NCBI GenBank assembly: GCA_044868105.1
Contig: JBIOWC010000196.1
Coordinates: 198-64,197, forward strand
Source: Blastocatellia bacterium
Lineage (GTDB): Bacteria; Acidobacteriota; Blastocatellia; UBA7656
DNA: 64,000 nt
Direction: 5' to 3'
Shown: in pieces, positions 2,782 through 62,800 of the stretch
How the letters are laid out: each line of letters begins with the position of its first letter
How positions within the stretch are numbered: the first letter of the stretch is position 1
The notes under the pieces: generated by a model
What the model was told of the DNA's origin: nothing
The model's input: only the letters and a program-made list of their open reading frames with translations
Databases searched by the model: none
Program-made: the position numbers and the translations under genes

Positions 2782-4791
2782 TTGAGCGTGGGTGACGTAT
2801 TGACTATGCTAGCTGCGCGATTTATGGCAAAGATTTCCTCGCGACTACGATTCTTGACTGAGATAAGCGAATGGTTATCCCGTAGCATCGCCAAACCATC
2901 AGCAGCAAAACCACGTCGTAAACAATGGCTCATCATCTGTGTCAGTATTTTTCTCATCGGGGTCGGTGTGCGCTTGTTGCACTGGCAAGACCTCACGGTT
3001 GAGCTTCAGCAGCAAGAAGAGATGATGCCCGGTCTGGCAAAACATTACAAACAAGAAGCCAAACAGATGCTCGACGAGGGCTACCTCCTTTATCCGGCAA
3101 GCCCGGTTGACCCGGGCGATGCGCGACTCATCTTGCATCCGCCGGGATATGCGTTTTTGATGGCCATCATTTTTCGGCTTTCCGGCGCAATTGATTCGCC
3201 GATCAGGCTGGCGCAAATCATCGGTGACTCACTTGCAGCGGTGTTGATTTTTTTCATTGCTGCAGAATTGTTTCGCCAAGCGATTGCCGTGCTTGCCGGA
3301 TTTCTGGTCGCCTTGTCGCCGCATTTTGCTCACTACTCGCTCTGGCTTTCACCCGATACCTTGCCGGTCTTACCGATATTGATTGCCGCATGGCTTATCA
3401 TTAAAGCGAGCCAGCGACCACGCCTCCCGACGGTCATTCTTGCCGGGGCTATGCTCGGATTATCCTGCTGGCTGCGCGCCAATGCCCTGTTGATTGCCCC
3501 GTTTTTTGCGGTCGCCGTTTTTTTTACCATTGAGCGCAGTAAACGCCTGCTCTATCCTGTCGCGCTGGTTGGCGCGATGGTCGTGGTGATTTCGCCAATC
3601 ACCATTCGCAATTGGATTCTCTATCATCACTTCATTCCAGTTTCGATAGCCGGAGGTGAAAACCTGGTGGTCGGTATTGCCGATGTTGATAAAGAAAAGC
3701 GTTTCGGGATGCCGGCATCGGATGATGAAGCTTCTGACAAAGATGCCGAGTGGCACAACCGCCCGGATTATGCGGTGAGCCTCTGGTCGCCCGATGGCAT
3801 TGAACGCGACCAGTATCGTTACCGGCGCGGGCTTGAAGTCATTCGCGCCAACCCCCGCTGGTTTTTAGGCGCGATGGCTAAACGCGCTATCTTTATGTTG
3901 CGCTATAACGATGCAATTCCTTCGACCTGGCCCTTCAATACGGCTAACGTGCCGTTGGTTGCTGCTGAACCCTCGGTCGGGCAAGCCCCCCTAAGCTTTG
4001 CGGACCAACAACCCACCTGGTCAGCCGATGCCAATCAATTACTGGCTGAAGGAGAACAACTGGCGAAAGCGGCTGAACTAGCCAGCGACGCAAGTGGGCT
4101 CGCGCTACGCGGTGACGGCTCGGCATTTGGAGATCAGTTTCAATCCACAAAGCTTGCGGTTGAACGGCACACCGATTACGCCATCACCTTTTCGGGAAAA
4201 GTCGTGCAGGGTGAAATGGGCATCAAAGTAACCGACGTGAACCGACGCATCACTCTCGATTCGATAATTTTTGCGCAAGACGAAAAAGTAAAGCAGAACG
4301 CTACAAATGGAGAGAGCGAGCCAGCCAAGCAAACGCGCACCCTGTTGTTTACCAGTGGCAACCGTTCGGAAGTGCGTCTGGTGATAAGCAACGATAGAGC
4401 CGATGCCAGGCATCCCGAAATTCGCATCGCAGAGGTTAAATTGTTCAATCTCGGGCCAACTCCCTATCGCTGGACGCGCTATCCGCGTTTGCTGGTTCGC
4501 GCCATTCAGAAAAATATTTTTCAGACGAAATTTTTATTGCCGTTGGTGATTGTCGGTGTGGCGTTGTTGATTTGGGCGCGGGCGCGAAAGTCATTGATTT
4601 TTTTACTCACCGTGCCAACTTACTATATGCTCATCCATTCAGCGTTAAGCACAGAGTATCGTTACATTCTCGCCATTCATTATTTCTTCTTTATCATCGC
4701 CAGCGTGACGCTGTGTTGCTTAAGCCTCGCCGTCAAACAAAGCGCAACCTATTCGCTGAACAAATTCAAAGCTGTCAAAAGCTCGTCCTGA
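2782..4791 (+). CDS. Polytopic membrane glycosyltransferase, family 39 (ArnT/PMT-like) architecture, with a long C-terminal soluble region and a terminal TM segment
   Basis: The 669-aa ORF has more than 10 predicted hydrophobic helices in its first ~300 aa. GT39-like N-terminal loop motifs are present (DEGYLLYPASP..., HPPGYAFLMAIIFRLSG). A hydrophilic ~250-aa domain follows, then a final hydrophobic stretch. Confidence 0.5.
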   Translation: MSVGDVLTMLAARFMAKISSRLRFLTEISEWLSRSIAKPSAAKPRRKQWLIICVSIFLIGVGVRLLHWQDLTVELQQQEEMMPGLAKHYKQEAKQMLDEGYLLYPASPVDPGDARLILHPPGYAFLMAIIFRLSGAIDSPIRLAQIIGDSLAAVLIFFIAAELFRQAIAVLAGFLVALSPHFAHYSLWLSPDTLPVLPILIAAWLIIKASQRPRLPTVILAGAMLGLSCWLRANALLIAPFFAVAVFFTIERSKRLLYPVALVGAMVVVISPITIRNWILYHHFIPVSIAGGENLVVGIADVDKEKRFGMPASDDEASDKDAEWHNRPDYAVSLWSPDGIERDQYRYRRGLEVIRANPRWFLGAMAKRAIFMLRYNDAIPSTWPFNTANVPLVAAEPSVGQAPLSFADQQPTWSADANQLLAEGEQLAKAAELASDASGLALRGDGSAFGDQFQSTKLAVERHTDYAITFSGKVVQGEMGIKVTDVNRRITLDSIIFAQDEKVKQNATNGESEPAKQTRTLLFTSGNRSEVRLVISNDRADARHPEIRIAEVKLFNLGPTPYRWTRYPRLLVRAIQKNIFQTKFLLPLVIVGVALLIWARARKSLIFLLTVPTYYMLIHSALSTEYRYILAIHYFFFIIASVTLCCLSLAVKQSATYSLNKFKAVKSSS

Positions 4792-6646: not shown

Positions 6647-7486
6647 TTAACGCAGACGTTTGCCAACGGCGCCTTGCTTGACCGCCGGACTGCCGATTTT
6701 TTGTCCCCACCGGGCTAGGGGTTTTATCAAGCGGTCAACGATGAAACCCTTTATTGCGTATTGAAATGGCATCCGCAGCGTCATGCGGGCAAGGCACGCG
6801 AGTTCCAACCCTTGTTGCCAACCGGGATTCGCGCTTTGAAAAAAAGCGATTTTCGGATTCGTCTCAACCAGCGATGCTGAAATATTCGCCACCCCGGTTT
6901 TCAAATGACACGCCGCTTCCTGCGGATGAATCAACCCGCTGGCCGCGTCATATTCACCTGGATAAAGCAGCGAATAAAATCTATTCATCAGTGTTTTTTT
7001 ATCTTCAGGCGTTGGCTTATTAAAACGCGGGTAATAGTCAGTGAAATTATTCGCCATCATCAGGTAGGTTTTGTAACCCTTGCTGATTAATAACCAGTAG
7101 AGCGGTGAAGCAGGTCGCCGCAATTTTTCTTTAAAGAGATACCCAAGAAACGCTTTGCCGAGCGTGCGCTGTCCCCAGAACGATTTTTCCAGCACCGTGT
7201 CGCCGCTGAAGATGGCGCGATATTCTTTGCCGCCCAGCTCGACGCTGAGTTTCATTATTGTAGAAAAGCCTTGAACCTGTTGGTTGCGCTCGTCGAGTAA
7301 AAGAATTACGTCATGCTTTTTCGCGAGGTCTTTTAAGAATTGTTCGCGGGTCACCGGCTCATAATAGTTCTGCATCAATTCAAACATGCGCATTTTGTGA
7401 GCCAGTGTGAGCTTTGTAGCAGGCACCACCTGAGCTTTCAATTTGCCATTCGCACGACGAGTTGAATCACTATTTTGCTTATTCAT
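6647..7486 (-). CDS. Hypothetical protein, possibly a GNAT-fold acyltransferase; function uncertain
   Basis: 279-aa soluble ORF, translationally coupled to its neighbours (16-bp gap to the SDR, 4-bp overlap with the Rieske gene). I recognise no catalytic motif with confidence. The size and context resemble N-acyltransferases found in lipid-tailoring clusters. Confidence 0.3.
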   Translation of the reverse strand: MNKQNSDSTRRANGKLKAQVVPATKLTLAHKMRMFELMQNYYEPVTREQFLKDLAKKHDVILLLDERNQQVQGFSTIMKLSVELGGKEYRAIFSGDTVLEKSFWGQRTLGKAFLGYLFKEKLRRPASPLYWLLISKGYKTYLMMANNFTDYYPRFNKPTPEDKKTLMNRFYSLLYPGEYDAASGLIHPQEAACHLKTGVANISASLVETNPKIAFFQSANPGWQQGLELACLARMTLRMPFQYAIKGFIVDRLIKPLARWGQKIGSPAVKQGAVGKRLR

Positions 7487-10007: not shown

Positions 10008-11294
10008 ATGTCACACGGCAGAAAGTTCAGACAGAGTAGGCGGATTCCTGAAACCGAGCGTTTCTTGTTCGAGCAAAAGTTGACCGGTCGTTATTCACGC
10101 ACTCTTGACCGCACGGATGTCATCAACTTGATCAGAGGCGGTGAAGACACGCATCTGGAATTTAAGATTCGCCTGGTCAATACCGAAAAAATTACTGCTG
10201 AGATTGTCGCCATGGCAAATTCCGGCGGCGGCGCCATGATGTTCGGCGTCAACGACCAGCGCCGCATCGAAGGCCTGGACGACCCCGAATACGTCGAAGA
10301 CCAACTCATCGAAATATGCCGCAATCAAATTAAACCCGCGCTTTTGCCGCGCATTGATAAAGTCTTTTTCGATAACGGCGACCGCATTGTTGTCTTGCAG
10401 GTTGATGACCGTCGCGCTCCGCACGCAACCCCCGACAATCGCTATTTTGTTCGGGTTGGCTCCACCAAACGCGAAGCCGCTGCCGATGAAATCGCTGCCC
10501 TGTTTGCCAAATCGCGTATCCTTGGATACGAAGATTCGCCGCAGGTTCAAGTTGCGGTTGAAGAGATTGATGAAGCATTGGTGTGGAGTTACTTGCGCGA
10601 CCTGGAGGGTGAACTGTTCCGCGAACCTGCGGGTTTTCCGACCGCCCAAGCCCTGCATGATTTATATCTGGCAAAAGAGTACGCTGGCGGCATTAGACCA
10701 ACCCTGGCGGGCGTGTTGCTCTTTGGTCGCAGTGCCGCTGTACAAAAGGCGGCTCCGCAAAGCGCCATCTATTTAACGCGCTATTCGGGTACCACGCTCG
10801 ATTCGCCGGTGGTTGAAAAGAGTGAAGCCTCGGGCAATTTGAGCGTCATGTTTGACCGCGCCCTGGCCTTCATCAAGCGCTATATTGATGTTTGGGATGC
10901 AAAACCACCGAAGTCCCAGAACGGGCAACCAGAGCCGATTTCAGCCCGCGCTAACTATTCGCGCGAAGTAATCATTGAAGCATTGACCAATCTTTTGGTG
11001 CATCGGGATTATTCGATGATGAATTCGCCTTCGCGTATTCTGGTATTCGATGACCGCATCGAACTCATCAATGCCCGGCGAACCAATGGACTGACCCGTA
11101 AATCCGTCGAATATGGTGTGACGGCGCAACCTAATCCGCGCCTTCATCATATCTTCACAGAAGCTGAATACGGGTGCGTATCCTCGCTTCGCGGGATTCC
11201 GGCTTTACGCCGCGCACACTTCGCATTTGCCAAACGCGAGCCGCGCATTTCGCTTCTCAATGACGAATTTCGTTTGGAACTCAACGGAGTTTGA
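10008..11294 (+). CDS. Putative ATP-dependent DNA-binding regulator with AlbA_2 (Schlafen-like 'divergent AAA') and HATPase_c_4 domains (RecG-like C-terminal family)
   Basis: EDTHLEFK motif and the AEIVAMANSGGG hallmark of AlbA_2. The C-terminal IIEALTNLLVHRDYS motif is typical of HATPase_c_4. A SD (GAGGTGGGG) precedes the ATG at 10008. Confidence 0.7.
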   Translation: MSHGRKFRQSRRIPETERFLFEQKLTGRYSRTLDRTDVINLIRGGEDTHLEFKIRLVNTEKITAEIVAMANSGGGAMMFGVNDQRRIEGLDDPEYVEDQLIEICRNQIKPALLPRIDKVFFDNGDRIVVLQVDDRRAPHATPDNRYFVRVGSTKREAAADEIAALFAKSRILGYEDSPQVQVAVEEIDEALVWSYLRDLEGELFREPAGFPTAQALHDLYLAKEYAGGIRPTLAGVLLFGRSAAVQKAAPQSAIYLTRYSGTTLDSPVVEKSEASGNLSVMFDRALAFIKRYIDVWDAKPPKSQNGQPEPISARANYSREVIIEALTNLLVHRDYSMMNSPSRILVFDDRIELINARRTNGLTRKSVEYGVTAQPNPRLHHIFTEAEYGCVSSLRGIPALRRAHFAFAKREPRISLLNDEFRLELNGV

Positions 11295-11297
11295 ACC

Positions 11298-11603
11298 ATG
11301 CGATGGCGAGGTTTTATATGCCTGGCATTTTTATTTGTCGCTTGCCATCAACCGGCGCAAATGCAATCTGTACACCAACCACCGACAACGAATCGAGAAG
11401 CCGCGCAACCCTGTGTGAATTTGAATGTGGCAAGTCTTGAAGAATTAAAAGCGTTGCCGGAAATTGGTGACGCGCTCGCCGCCCGCATCATTGATTACCG
11501 CGAACGTCACGGCAATTTTCGCCGCCCGCAAGAGGTCATCATTATCGAAGGCTTTACTGAAAAGAAATACCGTACGATTGCTGACCGCCTTTGCGTTGAA
11601 TGA
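11298..11603 (+). CDS. comEA: ComEA-family helix-hairpin-helix DNA-binding (competence) protein
   Basis: Signal peptide, then NLNVASLEELKALPEIGDALAARIIDYRERHGNFRRPQEV, the canonical ComEA HhH module. 101 aa. Confidence 0.8.
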   Translation: MRWRGFICLAFLFVACHQPAQMQSVHQPPTTNREAAQPCVNLNVASLEELKALPEIGDALAARIIDYRERHGNFRRPQEVIIIEGFTEKKYRTIADRLCVE

Positions 11604-12191: not shown

Positions 12192-13307
12192 GTGATGAGC
12201 AACACCAACCCACCCAATCCGATCTTAGTTGAAATCCGGCGCGGGGCAATTGTTGAAGCCGTGCATCGCGGCGCCATTGTCGCGCTTGAACCTGACGGCA
12301 ACCTCATTGCGGCGCTTGGCAACATTGATTTAATGACTTCAACGCGCTCGGCAATTAAACCGATTCAGGCAATCCCTTTTATCACCAGCGGCGCGGCTGA
12401 CCGCTTCAACGTCACCGGACGTGAACTCGCTGTGGTTTGCGCTTCGCATGACGGCGAACCTTTTCACACCGAAACCGTCGCGTCCTTACTTGATAAAATC
12501 GGGCTGAATGAAAGCGATTTGCGATGTGGCGCGCATCCGCCCTATCACGAAGCAACCGCCAGGCAACTTGAGCGCGACGGCATAAAGTTCACCCAGCTTC
12601 ACAACAACTGTTCAGGCAAACACGCGGGAATGCTGGCAACCTGCGTACATCGCGGGTTATCTACGGATGATTACACGGCAAAAGAGCATTCCGTTCAGCA
12701 GGAAATCATTGCTATCTTCAAGCGCCTTGCGGGGCTGGATGAACCTATCGCCATCGCAGTTGACGGTTGCAGTGCGCCGACCTTCGGGGTGCCGCTTCGT
12801 TCACTCGCGCTCGCATTTGCGCGGCTCGTTGAAGCTTCGGCCAACCACAACCGCGTAGATGAAAGCGGCTCCGGTAGCCAGTTTCAAGTTGAGCACCTAT
12901 CGCCACAACTCGCCGAAACGGCGCGCCGTGTGATGTACGCCATTGCCGCCAGACGAATTGTGGCAGCGATAACCGCGCATCCTGAAATGGTCGCTGGCAG
13001 CACCCGGCTCGACACCGATTTAATGCGTGTGGCGCGCGGTTCATTGATTTGCAAAGTCGGCGCCGAGGCGGTCTATTGCCTAGGCGTTTTGCCCTGCGCA
13101 ACCTATCCGCGCGGCCTGGGCATTGCCATCAAGATGGATGACGGCGCCTATAGAGGGATGAATCCCACGATTATCGAAACCCTTGCGCAACTCGAGGTTT
13201 TCGACAAAGCGCAGCAAGCGGAATTAACTGGCTATCATCAACCAACGGTGACGAATCACCGCGGCTTGAGAGTCGGCGAGATTCGCGCGGTATTTGAATT
13301 GAGATAG
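12192..13307 (+). CDS. L-asparaginase II family protein (Asparaginase_II, PF06089-type)
   Basis: The NNCSGKHAGML motif and overall similarity to the Rhizobium-type asparaginase II fold. 371 aa. Confidence 0.7.
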   Translation: MMSNTNPPNPILVEIRRGAIVEAVHRGAIVALEPDGNLIAALGNIDLMTSTRSAIKPIQAIPFITSGAADRFNVTGRELAVVCASHDGEPFHTETVASLLDKIGLNESDLRCGAHPPYHEATARQLERDGIKFTQLHNNCSGKHAGMLATCVHRGLSTDDYTAKEHSVQQEIIAIFKRLAGLDEPIAIAVDGCSAPTFGVPLRSLALAFARLVEASANHNRVDESGSGSQFQVEHLSPQLAETARRVMYAIAARRIVAAITAHPEMVAGSTRLDTDLMRVARGSLICKVGAEAVYCLGVLPCATYPRGLGIAIKMDDGAYRGMNPTIIETLAQLEVFDKAQQAELTGYHQPTVTNHRGLRVGEIRAVFELR

Positions 13308-13447
13308 GGGATAGGATTTAGGACGTAGGGTTTGGAGTTAGGCATTGTATGTTGCCTTGCAACAGGCTCCAGAAGCCAATTACAAGGTAATAGTTTCGCA
13401 CTCTACATCCGGAATCCTACCTCCTAAATCCTAAATCCTAATTTCTG
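13308..13447. repeat. Palindromic intergenic element, copy A: inverted heptamer-repeat arms flanking a conserved core
   Basis: Left arm GATAGGA-TTTAGGA-CGTAGGG-TTTGGAG-TTAGG. Right arm CCTACCT-CCTAAAT-CCTAAAT-CCTAAT (reverse-complementary heptads). The core contains AACAGGCTCCAGAAGCCAATTAC...TAG...CTCTACATCC, which is shared with copy B. Confidence 0.7.
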
Positions 13448-13453
13448 ACGATT

Positions 13454-28776: not shown

Positions 28777-29709
28777 CTATCTGTCTTCTGCTGCAACGAC
28801 CGGATTGCGCAGCGTGCCCAGTTTTTCGATGGTCACTTCAAACACATCACCGGCTTTTAAGAGCACCGGCGGTTTGCGAAAAATGCCTACGCCTTCGGGC
28901 GTGCCTGTCGCAATCACATCACCCGGTTCAAGCGTGATGCCTTGCGAAATGTAGGATACCAGATAGGCAATTTTAAAAATCATCTTCGCGGTATTTGATG
29001 ATTGCATCACCTCGCCGTTCAAACGCCCTTCGATGTTGAGCGCTTGCACATCTTCGATTTCATCGCGCGTCGTAATCAGGGGACCGAGCGGCGCAAAGCT
29101 ATCAAGCCCCTTGCCGCGCACCCATTGCCCGTCACCGAATTGTAAATCGCGAGCACTCACATCGTTAATCAATGAATAACCGAAAACAAAATTCAGCGCC
29201 TCCGCTTCGCTTACCCGTTTGGCGCGACGACCGATGATGACCGCGAGTTCCGCTTCGTAGTCCACCTGAGCGCTGATGGTCGGCAGCACAATGGGCGCGT
29301 TGTGCGCGCTCAAGGCATTCGGCAGTTTATTAAAAATAAGCGGCGCGGCGGGCGGTTCCGACCCGCCTTCAATCGCGTGATCGGCATAGTTGCGCCCGAT
29401 GGCGAGCATCTTACCCGGAATGACCGGCGGCAAAAACTCGACGTCGTCAACGGCAAAAGCCAGCCCTTCATCTAGCAAATTTTCGTCGGCCTGCGCTTCA
29501 TTGACCAGGGCGCTGATTTCCATAAGCGCCTCGTCGCCGCCGCCGATAATTTCCATCATATCGTTGCTTTCAAGCAACCAGCTTGAAGCCTGTCCGCTTG
29601 TCGGGCTCAAAGCCCGCACCAGCGCCGCAAGGTCCAGCAATTTTTCTTCTCTGAGAATGCCAATGCGTCGCCTGTTTGATTCAGCGATTTTAAATTGTGC
29701 GAGTTTCAT
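28777..29709 (-). CDS. Fumarylacetoacetate hydrolase (FAH) family protein (2-keto-4-pentenoate hydratase / oxaloacetate decarboxylase-like)
   Basis: FAH C-terminal domain motifs: NYADH, VDYEAELAVIIG, FGYSLINDVSARDLQ, GKGLDSFAPLGP. SD AGAGGA precedes the ATG. Confidence 0.85.
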   Translation of the reverse strand: MKLAQFKIAESNRRRIGILREEKLLDLAALVRALSPTSGQASSWLLESNDMMEIIGGGDEALMEISALVNEAQADENLLDEGLAFAVDDVEFLPPVIPGKMLAIGRNYADHAIEGGSEPPAAPLIFNKLPNALSAHNAPIVLPTISAQVDYEAELAVIIGRRAKRVSEAEALNFVFGYSLINDVSARDLQFGDGQWVRGKGLDSFAPLGPLITTRDEIEDVQALNIEGRLNGEVMQSSNTAKMIFKIAYLVSYISQGITLEPGDVIATGTPEGVGIFRKPPVLLKAGDVFEVTIEKLGTLRNPVVAAEDR

Positions 29710-29728
29710 TTCAGTGTTCCTCTCAAAT

Positions 29729-29918
29729 CAGGAATTAGGAGTTAGGATGTAGGAATTAGGATATAGGAGTTGGGGAGGTAGAGGATTTAATGTTTCACCC
29801 GCCTGTTGACTTGAAACAGGCTCCAGTAGCCAGTTACGAGACCGTAGCAGTTCTACTTCATCCCTTCCGTATGCTGTATCCTAATTCCCATTTCCTAATT
29901 CCTATATCCTACATCCTA
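29729..29918. repeat. Palindromic intergenic element, copy B (same family as 13308-13447)
   Basis: Left arm AATTAGG-AGTTAGG-ATGTAGG-AATTAGG-ATATAGG-AGTTGGG... Right arm CCTAATT-CCCATTT-CCTAATT-CCTATAT-CCTACAT-CCTAG. The core AACAGGCTCCAGTAGCCAGTTAC...TAG...TTCTACTTCATCC is about 75% identical to copy A. Confidence 0.7.
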
Positions 29919-30857
29919 GCTAGCGGTTTCAAGTCGGCGACGTTGAAATTCGTCAAAGGTCACGGCCAGCACGATGACGGCGCCGATGATGACCTGTTGC
30001 GTAAACGACGAAATGCCGAGCAGATTCGCGCCGTTTGCCAGTACGCCCATAATCAACGAGCCGATAATTGTACCAATAACGGTTCCTTGCCCGCCGGCAA
30101 GTGAGCCGCCCCCGATGACGACGGCGGCGATAACGCGCAGTTCATAACCCTCGCCCGCGGTTGGTTGCCCGGTTACGAGCCGCGCCGATTCAATAGCTCC
30201 TGCCAAACCGGCAAGCGCCCCGAGAATGACGTAGAACATAATTTGATAACGCGAAACGCGAACCCCTGCGTAACGCGCCGCTTCGACATTACTGCCGATG
30301 GCATAACAATAACGACCCGCCTGGGTGCGGGTAAGCAAAAAATGGATGACCAGCGCGACCACCAGAACAATCAGTAGCGGCACAGGAAACACGCCAAACA
30401 GGTTGCCTTCGGCGAGATAACCGAAACTGTTTGGCAAACCGACAACCGCCGTGCCATCGGTGATGAGTAAAGCGACGCCGCGATAAATTCCCATCGCCCC
30501 CAGCGTGACAATAAACGGCGGGATTTTGAGCATCGCCACCGCCGTTCCGTTAATGATTCCAAACATCGCGCCCGCCGCTATACAGACCAGGATTCCCAAA
30601 AGCACCGGAGCGCCAGCGACCATCGAGAGCGCGCCAAGCACAGCGGTCAACGCCATCATCGAACCGACCGACAGGTCTATGCCGCCTGCGACCATCACCA
30701 TCGTCATGCCGATTGCCATGGTGGTAATCACTGCCGTCTGCCGCGCGACCCCGGCAAGGTTACCGGCGGAAAGAAATTTTGGCTCAAGCACGGCAATCAG
30801 AGTGCAGAGCGCCAGCAAGCTGACAAAAGGTAGAAAGCGTTTAATCCAATCCGACAT
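29916..30857 (-). CDS. Sugar ABC transporter permease (RbsC/branched monosaccharide type)
   Basis: 313 aa with about 10 TM helices. The conserved loop IPPFIVTLGAMGIYRGVALLITDG is typical of the ribose/xylose permease family. Confidence 0.85.
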   Translation of the reverse strand: MSDWIKRFLPFVSLLALCTLIAVLEPKFLSAGNLAGVARQTAVITTMAIGMTMVMVAGGIDLSVGSMMALTAVLGALSMVAGAPVLLGILVCIAAGAMFGIINGTAVAMLKIPPFIVTLGAMGIYRGVALLITDGTAVVGLPNSFGYLAEGNLFGVFPVPLLIVLVVALVIHFLLTRTQAGRYCYAIGSNVEAARYAGVRVSRYQIMFYVILGALAGLAGAIESARLVTGQPTAGEGYELRVIAAVVIGGGSLAGGQGTVIGTIIGSLIMGVLANGANLLGISSFTQQVIIGAVIVLAVTFDEFQRRRLETAS

Positions 30858-32597: not shown

Positions 32598-32782
32598 GCC
32601 CCGAAGGGGCGAGATTCAATAGCTTAGGGCAACGCCCGGAGAAATGCAGGTCTCGGTTCTCAAGCCCTGAAAGGGCGACATTAGCTACCCCGATTTATTT
32701 CGCCCTTTCAGGGCTTTTCGTTTTCATGCCCGACATTTCCCGGCGCGATACGCCGGGCTATTGAATTGCGCCCTTTCAGGGC
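32598..32782. repeat. Cluster of REP-like 13-nt palindromic hairpins (GCCCTGAAAGGGC and variants) in both orientations
   Basis: GCCCCGAAGGGGC (32598-32610), GCCCTGAAAGGGC (32664-32676), GCCCTTTCAGGGC (32702-32714), GCCCTTTCAGGGC (32770-32782), plus CCCGGCG-CGATA-CGCCGGG (32739-32757). All lie in the 308-bp spacer between the SUKH-like gene and the ABC ATPase start. Confidence 0.65.
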
Positions 32783-32869
32783 TTCGCTCAACTTTATAAA
32801 ACCGAACAAGGCTACTTACTTTCGGTGATTGAACATTCGCAATGCAGCGACCGGATTCATCATATGCGA

Positions 32870-34529: not shown

Positions 34530-34774
34530 AATTCCTCTTTAGAGCGCGTCTTAGGAGATGGTGACGATGCCTTGTCCATTCTCCATTGTCGGACAGAAGA
34601 AAATACCTGCGAAAAACCCTGAAAAAACCTTAAGCAATTTACCATTAAATCACGGTCTTTGACTTACCATTAAATCGCCGTCTTTGACCGCTTCCTCAAC
34701 CTCGGCAATGGGTTTCTCTGCTTCTCTGGTTTTTCAAAAATCGCGCGAACAGTAGTGCAAACGGCCAATGAATA

Positions 34775-59818: not shown

Positions 59819-59860
59819 GGTAATTTGTCGCTCTCCTTACTTAAGAAGTTAATCCTCAAC

Positions 59861-62800
59861 TTAGAAGTTAATCCTCAACGAGCCTTGCATAATGCGCGGC
59901 GAGCGGGCCGAAATGGGCGCGCCAAACCGCGTATTGGTCTGTTTGCCAGCGGCATCGAAGGTCATCGCTCCATCAATGTCGCGGAAATTCACCCGGTTGA
60001 AAAGATTGTAAGTCTCCCAACGAAATTGCAAACGATGCCGCTCACCAAGCGGAATATTTTTGAAAAATGCCAGGTCGGTATTGAACGACGCCGGAAGACG
60101 AATCGAGTTCCTCCCCAGATTGCCAATGGCCCCGGCAGTTGTGGGCTTGACGAAACACGAGGTATCAATCAGGTACTCGGTTCCGGTCGGGTCGCGCAGA
60201 TAGGTTTTCTGATTCGGGTCACAAATCAGATTCGGACGGGCATTGATTGAACCGCCGGTGAAGTCTGTGATATTCGTCGCTCCCGCCGTCCCGGCAAAGG
60301 TCCAGTTCAACCCGGTGCCGGTGCCAAAGACTTTCGGTTTGCCGCTCGCATAAGAGGTGGTGCCGGAAATTTGCCAGCCATCGAAGAGCGCTTTGACGAA
60401 GCCCTTTTCCCACAGTCGGCTGAGCCCCGGCAGGTCCCAGATGTAGTTAATGGTAAAAATGTGCGGCTGATCGAAGTCCGCCGGCCCATAATTGAACGCC
60501 CGGTAAGGTCGCCCATTAAAAACATCCGAAGAATCGTCATTGGCATAATCAAAGGTCTTTGACCAGGTATAGGCAATGCCATACTGAAAGCCATGCGTAT
60601 AGCGGCGATTGACCTGAACCTGTAGCCCGTTATAGTTCGAGGAACCGGCGTAGACGACGGTGGTGATCGCCCCGTAACCTTGATAGGGTCGCAGGAAATT
60701 ATCGGCCAGGGCTCCGGTTTGATTCGGTCCGTTTATGCCGACCGCCGCAAACGGATTGCGATTTTCCGGGTGCAGATTCAGGAATTTCGCGCCGTCGGGA
60801 ACCTGATTAATATCGCGGCGCTCTCCGAGGTGTCGGGTGAGCGAGCCCACATAACTGACCTCCATCACCGTCTGCAAACCGATATCCTGTTGAATGCCGA
60901 ACGAGAAGTTGTAAGTTGTCGGGGTATGCGAGTGGCTCTCAACCGCATTGATTGAACTCGGCGAATTGAGCGCCGTGCCGACCAGATTAACCAGGTTGTC
61001 GATGTTGCCAAAATCAATTGTCAGATTGGTCTGAAACGGTTGGTTGTTGACCAGGTTGCCGCCCGTCGTGCCGCCACCGGCGCGCGGCGCATGATAGACG
61101 CCGCCCATCGCGCGTAGCACGGTCTTCCCTTTACCCAAAATGTCCCAGGCTAAACCGAAGCGCGGTTCCCAATCAATCGGCTGAACATCTTTGAAACCTT
61201 TGGGCGTACCCGATTCACCGGCTAGCGCTAGTCCATTATTCGGGTCGCCGCTTCCTAAAACGAAAGTGCCAACCAAGTTGGTGTTGGTAAACAGTTGCCC
61301 GGTACGCGGGTCCTGGGCGCGACGGTTAGCGGTTGCACAAGCCGCGGTCGCCGGCGTGCCGCCGACGCAGAACGGACGATAGAGCAGTTGCGCTTTGGCC
61401 GGGTCAAAGCGCACCGGATCAAAGTTTGAGGCCAGGTCATCGCGCTGTCGCCATTGCGTGTGATAGCCCAGGCGCAAGCCATAATTCAAGGTGAGTTGTC
61501 GGTTCACTTTCCACTGGTCCTGCGCGTACCACTGCAAAAGGACAATCTCCAGATTGGTAAAGGGACGTGAATTCGATTCCTGATAACTTCTGAAATTACC
61601 GGTGAGCGCATTTGCATAAGCATAGCCGGTGTTGCCAAGAGAGGCCGAGAAGGCGCTATCGGTGCCGCTGAAATTGAAGACTCCGGACCATTGCCCGCCC
61701 GGCGCTTCGCCGTTCAGCACCCGTTCATAATAGGCGCCGAATTTATAACTGTGCTCGCCGCGCGTGATGGACAGGTTATCGGCAAACGAAGGGCGAATAT
61801 AGTCATTGCCGGTTTCGCCCCAGCGGTCAAGCCAGTTGATGTTGGCCGGCGTACCTTGAACGCCGCTCCAATTGGTCGCTCTGGGGATGGTGCCGAGCCG
61901 GTTGTTATCGGGGAAGAGTTGCGGCGCCGTATAGTTCAAGGCGCTGCGTTGCAGGCGTTCAATCTCGCCATCGGAAGGCACAAAGCCTTCGGAATCATGG
62001 CGCATCCCAAAATTGAATTCATTAACCATCGTTGGACTGAAGATATGCACCCAGTTGGCCGACCAGCCATTGTCTTTGTAAAGGTAATGCGAACTGATGC
62101 CCCAGCGGTTTTCATCATTGCCGGGCCAGCCCGAAGTTCCGGTGCCCTCGTTATCCGATGTCCACCATTGCGCCTTCCAATAGATGCTGTCTTTATTCGA
62201 TGGCTTCACATCAAAACGAATCACCTGACTGCGTTTGGGAACATCAACCGGGCTTTGCACCACATAATTAAACGCCCCGCCGGTTGCGGTGCGCCCGCCG
62301 GGCGTATTGGGTAAGGGAAAATAATTGAGCAACGCTTGCCCGCTCTTATTAATGCGGGATTGCGGAATGATATTCAAGCCAAGGGGATTGGCGGCCGTGG
62401 CGCGCGACGGGTCGCGAAAACAGGCGCTTTGGTCGGTGGCGCTGCAGTTGCCCGTGCTAATCAACGGGTCGCGAACAAAAACTTTCGCGCCGGTCGAATT
62501 CACCGACTGCGAGAAATCGCCGGCGCGTTCGAGCGCTGTCGGCATCGTGACAAAACGCGGGTCTTGCGGCGTAATCTGGTGGGGTCTTTCATAGGAATAA
62601 AAGAAGAAGAGTTTATCTCTGGTCTTGTTGGGAAAGAGTTTCGGGACTTGCACCGGGCCGCCGAAATTCAGTCCCCAGATGTTGTGCCGATAGAGCGGCC
62701 GCCCGAGCCCCGCTTTGTTATTGAAAAAAGGCGCCGCGTTGAGCGCTTCGTTGCGAATGAAGTAGTAGCCGGAGCCGGCGTAGTGGCGATTGCCGCCTTT

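Follow-up and report, generated by a model that had tools for sequence, protein, structure and literature searches.

Between two genes of an acidobacterial operon, one stretch of DNA reads as a palindrome whose halves are each built from 7-base units, and the question is what such a structure is: a hairpin that shapes the operon's mRNA, an array of sites read at the level of DNA, a terminator, or a repeat that has lodged between the genes. The element, which we call copy B, measures 190 bp and lies at positions 29729–29918 of a 64-kb stretch of DNA (64,000 nucleotides; "the window" below means this whole stretch as analysed). It is a non-coding, hairpin-forming repeat in which both arms are runs of a 7-base unit, and two minus-strand genes, for a BPD_transp_2 ABC permease and a FAA hydrolase (FAH), lie on either side of the 206-nt gap that it occupies. 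The FAH Shine-Dalgarno sequence sits 5 nt outside the element. A preliminary description of this DNA had both the size of the gap and the position of the Shine-Dalgarno sequence right.

Specifically, copy B consists of about six TAGGANN heptads on the left, a 99-nt centre, and about six NNTCCTA heptads on the right (Table 1). The left arm had been described as an array of about eight heptads; it is indeed an array, with six clear units and one or two degenerate ones. Period 7 and period 14 are detected in both arms by Tandem Repeats Finder, and the motif TAGGANNTAGGA, allowing at most one mismatch, occurs 16 times in the window against 0.68 expected, with all 16 occurrences falling within copy B and a second element, copy A. 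The window has other tandem repeats, at 2494–2570 (period 26, three units), 34639–34688 (period 25, two units) and 59839–59879 (period 19, 2.1 units), which are unrelated to the heptad elements. No ORF of 60 or more amino acids lies wholly within copy B; two plus-strand ORFs, 29390–29752 and 29790–30104, merely clip its ends. The right arm had been said to encode the final residues of the permease, but only the stop codon lies in the arm; the permease C-terminus (..RRLETAS) is outside copy B and is as long as that of the orthologues.

Table 1. Positions of the repeat elements and adjoining signals in the window, and of PF05635 genes at heptad loci in other genomes.
Feature	Source	Position	Strand	Basis or remark
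Copy B purine-rich arm, about six TAGGANN heptads plus degenerate units	window	29729–29777		sequence, inverted- and tandem-repeat finding, motif count, register test
Units of the copy B left arm: CAGGAAT TAGGAGT TAGGATG TAGGAAT TAGGATA TAGGAGT TGGG	window	29729–29774		
Copy B conserved asymmetric W core, GTTGACTTGAAACAGGCTCCAGTAGCCAGTTACGAGACCGTAG, within the 99-nt centre	window	29805–29847	+	23-mer exact; aligns to copy A, L121 and L122
Copy B pyrimidine-rich arm, about six NNTCCTA heptads	window	29874–29918		sequence, inverted- and tandem-repeat finding, motif count
Stop codon TAG of the BPD_transp_2 ABC permease gene (29916–30857), supplied by the outermost heptad	window	29916–29918	-	ORF list, Pfam, orthologue C-termini
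FAH start codon (29707–29709) and Shine-Dalgarno GAGAGGA (29717–29723)	window	29707–29723	-	sequence, ORF list, Pfam, fold
Copy A purine-rich arm (TAGGGGA TAGGATT TAGGACG TAGGGTT ...)	window	13303–13346		TAG 13305–13307 is the asparaginase II stop codon
Copy A W core	window	13351–13393	+	DNA orientation as in copy B, although its neighbours are plus-strand genes
Copy A pyrimidine-rich arm, ending about 5 nt ahead of the aminotransferase start codon (13454)	window	13405–13448		sequence, ORF list, fold
PF05635 gene	L051	4293–4868		
PF05635 gene	L080	766–1224		
PF05635 gene	L111	3130–3574		
PF05635 gene	L114	4882–5382		
PF05635 gene	L060	3060–3328		

How the two arms pair bears on what the element can be. 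The best ungapped pairing found by the repeat finder spans 39 nt with 82% complementarity, and the arms are thus complementary, as had been proposed. They do not, however, form a unique base-by-base mirror: pairing reaches 67–79% in every 7-nt register and 13–37% out of register, and we therefore rejected a single mirror register, as all heptad registers pair about equally well. The complementarity of the arms is real and is derived mainly from the heptad consensus, and the arms act as a slippery zipper.

Two heptad-armed elements occur in the 64 kb, and they have a 43-nt core and the type of heptad in common. Copy A (13303–13448) spans the 146 nt that separate two plus-strand genes, one for asparaginase II and one for a class-V aminotransferase, and in copies A and B alike the stop codon of the upstream gene is the TAG of the first heptad. 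A 23-mer, AACAGGCTCCAGnAGCCAnTTAC, is identical at 13361 and 29815, where no such identity is expected by chance; the block that can be aligned between the copies extends around it for about 43 nt and is asymmetric. The description of copy B as a second heptad-armed palindrome with a core that aligns to that of copy A is therefore borne out. We refer to this block as the W core. Both copies have it on the plus strand, so that relative to transcription it is sense in copy A and antisense in copy B. A near-copy of the W-core 23-mer is present at 12863–12885, inside the asparaginase II coding sequence and about 440 nt upstream of copy A, with four mismatches in the window and three in an orthologue (L127, 9393–9415) and with similarity that reaches about 23 of 34 nt. 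This near-copy is probably a product of chance; it could also be the origin of the core.

The transcripts of both elements are predicted to fold stably. The transcribed (minus) strand of copy B gives a fold of −69.6 kcal/mol (z = −4.1) and copy A one of −62 kcal/mol (z = −6.4). In copy B the predicted outer stem comprises about 29–33 imperfect base pairs directly after the permease stop codon and is shorter than the stem of more than 40 bp that had been envisaged. Such folds raise the possibility that copy B is a selected intercistronic mRNA element, a hairpin that evolved in place and tunes expression through processing, stability, coupling or occlusion of the ribosome binding site, with the heptads as an adjustable length. 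Two features of the folds fit this idea: in copies A and B alike the stem has the upstream stop codon at its base, and in the minimum-energy fold of copy B the last heptad is left unpaired, so that its UUCCU can pair with the AGGAA of the FAH Shine-Dalgarno sequence. Against it, the pairing is degenerate in register and is not that of a tuned structure, the W core recurs in copy A, at an unrelated junction whose genes are on the other strand, and the sense strand has no advantage in fold energy. Across seven ORF-less elements, the sense minus the antisense energy is −3.4, +12.7 (copy B), −3.4, −0.2, +0.2, +0.1 and +7.1 kcal/mol. We therefore rejected strand-specific RNA selection: these values contain no consistent signal, and copy B folds 12.7 kcal/mol better on its antisense strand.

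A hairpin at this position might instead be a transcription terminator or attenuator between two transcription units, and a long stable hairpin just past a stop codon is what such a site would look like. In two relatives, L124 and L125, TTCTTTTT comes after the 3′ arm, and TTTT follows the short hairpin at the same junction in a third, L141. In the window, however, a consensus scan for intrinsic terminators finds none formed by the arms, and no T-run lies beyond copy A or copy B. The FAH start codon follows only 20 nt on, with its own Shine-Dalgarno sequence, and a promoter scan yields nothing attributable to the element and no promoter-like site for FAH within the gap; in addition, the element is palindromic and is found in both orientations. 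We consider a terminator or attenuator highly improbable. A sigma-54 or sigma-70 promoter in the core was likewise rejected; by eye, the spacings of the candidate hexamers do not fit.

Known RNA families offer no match for the element. At the gathering scores of Rfam 15, no family is assigned to it, and the only hit in the window, elsewhere, is Acido-Lenti-1; at a permissive threshold the best match is MIR2118, with 26.7 bits against the 85 required, which reflects merely a generic long hairpin. The Acido-Lenti-1 RNA motif (RF01687) is at 32739–32783 on the plus strand and scores 41.5 bits, above its gathering threshold of 37; it lies a short way upstream of the gene for the ABC ATPase in the operon that contains copy B, but on the opposite strand. 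Together with the best matches of the window's proteins, this RNA assigns the DNA to Acidobacteriota, close to Blastocatellia and Pyrinomonadaceae.

The earlier proposal that the stem would sequester or punctuate the polycistronic mRNA is weak, because transcription reads the core in one direction in copy A and in the other in copy B, because the signature of an intrinsic terminator is absent, and because the sense and antisense fold energies of the seven ORF-less elements have no consistent bias. The lack of a sense-strand fold bias and the orientation of the core favour a repeat that exists at the level of DNA, with the RNA hairpin as a by-product.

The corresponding junctions were also compared in related genomes. 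We refer to the junction between the permease and FAH genes as site B and to that between the asparaginase and aminotransferase genes as site A. At site B, three relatives whose FAH proteins are 80–85% identical (L124, L125 and L126) each have a heptad hairpin of 160–175 nt. The heptads of these hairpins are unlike those of the window (GTCAGAA/TTCAGGA and TACAGGA), and their core differs from the W core and is itself heptad-like (GATGAAC GATGAAC...). Alignment to a hairpin of this type suggests that the core in the window is an extra loop block of about 47 nt, an alignment to be read with caution since the sequence is repetitive. In a more distant relative (L141, 77% identity), site B is only 52 nt long and contains an 8-bp hairpin. 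L141 has no heptad hairpin at site B, but elsewhere in its version of this sugar-transporter operon two junctions hold heptad hairpins, of the AAAAGGC and ACAGGNN types (3684–3879 and 7187–7401). The notion that the heptad type is specific to a genome is weakened by these two types in one operon. Insertions are also present in relatives at further junctions of this gene neighbourhood; in L126, a small ORF and a PIN-domain gene lie between the FAH gene and a LarA-like gene (10982–11595).

The length of site A ranges from 0 to 163 nt; the window has the 146-nt TAGGA-type form. In L128 (84% identity) the site is empty and the genes overlap as ATGA, and there is thus a presence/absence polymorphism, with L128 empty and the window and L127 filled. 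In L143 (88%) and L144 (86%) the spacers are 22 nt long and contain a one-heptad mini-palindrome, CAGAATTCT, which looks like a collapsed hairpin. In L127 (81%), which comes from the same genome as L126, there is a 163-nt hairpin of the CAGGA type, and its core matches that of the site B element of that genome. The only candidates for a target-site duplication are GAT (copy A of the window) and ATGAA (L127), which are too short to trust, with boundaries blurred by the heptads. The radical-SAM gene that follows the aminotransferase gene in L128 (2611–4509) encodes 632 amino acids, with a faint intein match, and 312 amino acids in the window.

Because relatives have empty sites, footprints and hairpins of other types at sites A and B, the elements at these junctions are evidently gained, lost, expanded, collapsed and replaced. 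Cores are common to the sites within one genome rather than to orthologous sites. The number of heptads per arm at orthologous junctions ranges from 0 or 1 to about six, and the earlier proposal that arm length is labile holds in this wider comparison, which is consistent with slippage.

The same comparison bears on the idea of a hairpin that evolved in place for its effect on the mRNA. That a hairpin recurs at the same junction in L124, L125 and L126, with a short form in L141, is in its favour, as is the fact that the arms stay complementary while their consensus shifts (TAGGA/TCCTA, CAGGA/TCCTG and CAGAA/TTCTG). The aminotransferase gene that follows copy A lacks a Shine-Dalgarno sequence, and in the relative with the empty site the ATGA overlap couples its translation to that of the gene before it. 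In close relatives, however, site A is empty or holds a mere footprint while the genes are kept, and the core is flipped between orthologues. We consider a selected mRNA element unlikely.

The flip of the core emerged from searches for it elsewhere. The core pattern has no match in 185,579 species-representative genomes and none in viral contigs, and a blastn search of plasmids with the core returns none; in metagenomes there are three (L121, L122 and L123). In L121 and L122, both soil-metagenome contigs, the W core again lies between heptad arms, here of the NNCAGGA type. L123 has the core 23-mer without heptad arms and is probably a chance or unrelated match. L121 (640–800) and L122 (355–500) are orthologous loci, in which the flanks align plus to plus with 85–87% identity and the interior of the element aligns on the minus strand with 81%. 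Because the flanks have the same orientation and the interior is on opposite strands, the core must have flipped between these relatives, as expected if inverted arms recombine.

We conclude, with a probability of roughly 0.6, that copy B is ORF-less, slippage-prone, selfish or neutral DNA, one of a family of palindromic repeats with heptad arms that is dispersed over junctions between co-directional operon genes. Membership in a repeat family follows from three observations: the heptad motif is confined to the two copies, the 23-mer is exact, and L121 and L122 have the core between heptad arms. In such a family, the arms would grow, shrink and collapse through slipped-strand mispairing of the 7-nt units, the core would flip through recombination between the inverted arms, and new copies or cores would presumably spread by a process resembling transposition or gene conversion. 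TAG-bearing heptads would cycle through all three reading frames, such that a gene reading into the element should stop within three units; insertion at the ends of genes would therefore be tolerable. In the operon transcript, copy B is predicted to fold into an imperfect stem of about 30 bp right after the permease stop codon. By analogy, the most probable consequence would be post-transcriptional: RNase III would cut the stem, as it does in 23S rRNA intervening sequences, or the stem would hold back 3′ exonucleases, as REP sequences do. In both cases the hydrolase cistron would become uncoupled from those of the transporter. More speculatively, the hairpin of copy A may keep the stop and start codons close and so preserve the translational coupling seen as ATGA in the empty site, an idea prompted by the stop codon at the base of the stem and the start codon without a Shine-Dalgarno sequence 9 nt past it. 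Two considerations weigh against a selfish, mobile repeat. In the 64 kb of the source genome, we found no transposase, clear target-site duplication or autonomous partner, and the persistence of a hairpin at one junction across relatives with 77–85% identical proteins could mean a selected function.

Elements with arms of this kind extend well beyond the Acidobacteriota. Four consecutive TAGGANN units occur at no fewer than 120 loci (at least 120) in species-representative genomes of many phyla; among the matches listed, the hosts include Nostocales, Bacteroidota, Clostridia, Planctomycetota, Gemmatimonadota, Acidobacteriota and others. At least 15 of the loci have paired arms, and among the matches listed all of these are arranged as TAGG...CCTA and none is reversed. 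A period-7 detector that is independent of the motif finds 45 inverted pairs, with the purine-rich arm 5′ in about 36 and the order reversed in three. The same polarity, with a purine- or G-rich array 5′ and a pyrimidine- or C-rich array 3′ on either strand, is also observed in most of the four-helix-bundle cassettes described below.

Some of these loci contain a gene. In five among the 120 loci listed, a PF05635/TIGR02436 "four helix bundle" gene lies directly between or beside the heptad arms (Table 1). One of these loci, L114, also has two ORF-less elements with a common 100-nt core in opposite orientation, and their arms are 93–97% identical to the arms of the PF05635 cassette 1.5–4 kb away. 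For the converse test, we took 12 PF05635 genes from plasmids (L129–L140), chosen irrespective of any repeats. In 24 of 24 flanks, period 7 is stronger than any other period from 4 to 12, against a background of 2–7%; the flanks form an inverted repeat above all shuffles at 10 of the 12 loci, and every one of the 12 genes lies between inverted heptad arrays. These arrays abut the start and stop codons of the PF05635 genes, and the heptad sequence varies by genome. The sampled cassettes in L129 and L134–L140 sit between co-directional operon genes, often in defence operons. The defence junctions with a four-helix-bundle (4HB) cassette are HsdS–4HB–HsdR, helicase–4HB–methylase, DrmD–4HB–PglX, Cas2–4HB–Cas1 and DUF1156–4HB–Swt1 HEPN, and there is a non-defence junction, RND adaptor–4HB–RND permease. 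Our literature search, which was of incomplete coverage, found no paper that places PF05635 genes generally within inverted heptad arrays. PF05635 is homologous to Avd, an accessory protein of diversity-generating retroelements (PMC10053308).

Copies A and B have no PF05635 ORF, and copy B is too short to hold one. A local HMM built from 14 members of the family gives no match in any window ORF of 40 or more amino acids, and no PF05635 gene was found in the acidobacterial loci examined.

The near-constant embedding of PF05635 genes in heptad arrays invites another reading, in which the arms work as DNA: as iterated sites for a protein, such as an OB-fold or Csp-like single-strand binder or the four-helix-bundle protein itself, or as non-B DNA (a cruciform or a G-quadruplex-like structure) that affects replication or supercoiling. 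The strong polarity bias would fit this, as would the tendency for one heptad type to be common within a genome, seen in the two window copies, in both copies in GCA_040754075.1 and in the three L114 elements; moreover, the GGGAATC repeats of Xanthomonas form G-quadruplexes in vitro (PMC4692102). TAGGANN, however, has runs of just two G and is a poor quadruplex former, the two heptad types in one operon of L141 mean that a single genome-specific reader is not required, and the window contains no candidate binding protein. A 7-bp period would also misfit the phasing expected for binding to duplex DNA. We regard a binding array or non-B structure as distinctly improbable and retain the reading of copy B as a slippage-prone repeat.

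A broader synthesis can be put forward tentatively, at rather less than even odds: hairpins with heptad arms may belong to a single, pan-bacterial class of mobile cassettes that sit between cistrons, with the PF05635 form as the cargo-bearing member, the 23S rRNA intervening sequences as a special case that landed in rRNA, and ORF-less copies such as A and B as non-autonomous derivatives with exchanged or inverted loop modules. If this were true, the decades-old question of the origin and mobility of intervening sequences would become tractable by means of filled, empty and footprint sites.

Taken alone, copy B is just another palindromic repeat between genes, with a probably modest effect on the sugar-transporter/hydrolase operon. 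The class to which it belongs is widespread but poorly understood and lodges between the genes of bacterial operons; inverted heptamer arrays are on record from Xanthomonas and cyanobacteria, and heptamers from an rRNA intervening sequence. The acidobacterial lineage offers a graded series at two junctions (empty, a one-heptad footprint, and full hairpins of different types), together with a loop module that flips, which is material for asking how such elements arise, expand, collapse and spread. In addition, the link to PF05635 and its Avd homologues suggests a candidate trans-acting factor that can be tested.

Several known systems resemble these elements in part. REP/BIME and REPIN sequences are, like the window elements, short extragenic palindromes that lie between operon genes and form RNA hairpins, and dispersal in many copies is a further likeness. 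REP hairpins can stabilise upstream mRNA, as in the mal operon of E. coli. However, REPs, as summarised in one account (PMC3733652), are 20–40 bp long, carry a GTAG or CGTC head and are associated with a RAYT transposase, whereas the window elements are 146–190 bp long, have heptad arms of 40–50 bp around a core of about 100 nt, and have no consistent GTAG or CGTC head; in the parts of the window that were scanned, no RAYT was seen.

MITEs such as Correia, ERIC and Nezha share more of the overall design, being non-coding elements of 150–200 bp with inverted terminal arms, present in multiple copies and both orientations, with filled and empty sites among relatives. Despite these similarities, the terminal repeats of the window elements are tandem heptads of variable number and not a fixed transposase-binding repeat, no clear target-site duplication and no cognate IS were found in the 64 kb, and the same junctions are occupied by different variants of the family in different lineages.

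The paired heptamer arrays of Xanthomonas (GGGAATC) and cyanobacteria (STRR-type) are closer. Each Xanthomonas genome has 70–75 convergent GGGAATC pairs that are conserved in position, variable in length and without known function (Rehm et al. 2015; PMC4692102). Like the window elements, the Xanthomonas and cyanobacterial pairs are intergenic, consist of two convergent 7-nt arrays with the G-rich array first, and can form a stem-loop; pairs of the Xanthomonas type also share with them a position that is conserved among relatives and a length and sequence that vary. In contrast to the Xanthomonas pairs, the window heptad TAGGANN is not prone to form quadruplexes and the host is an acidobacterium, and the loop, unlike that of the Xanthomonas pairs as described, holds a conserved, asymmetric 43-nt core that is flipped between orthologues.

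The intervening sequences of 23S rRNA form the other close comparison. That of Coxiella encodes a PF05635 protein, and RNase III removes it at the first repeat (Warrier et al. 2016; PMC4990558), and two or three tandem heptamers, in strain-variable number, lie at its 5′ end (PMC4990558). In both the 23S intervening sequences and, by the folds predicted here, the window elements, an insert is enclosed by a long terminal stem. Elsewhere, heptad-armed hairpins hold a PF05635 ORF of the intervening-sequence type in their loop, and ORF-less and ORF-bearing forms share arms in one genome. Unlike the 23S intervening sequences, the window elements lie at mRNA operon junctions, are ORF-less and have no sequence homology to them, and the link is one of architecture. 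Among known systems, copy B is closest to the inverted pairs of heptamer repeats in Xanthomonas and cyanobacteria and to the intervening sequences of 23S rRNA.
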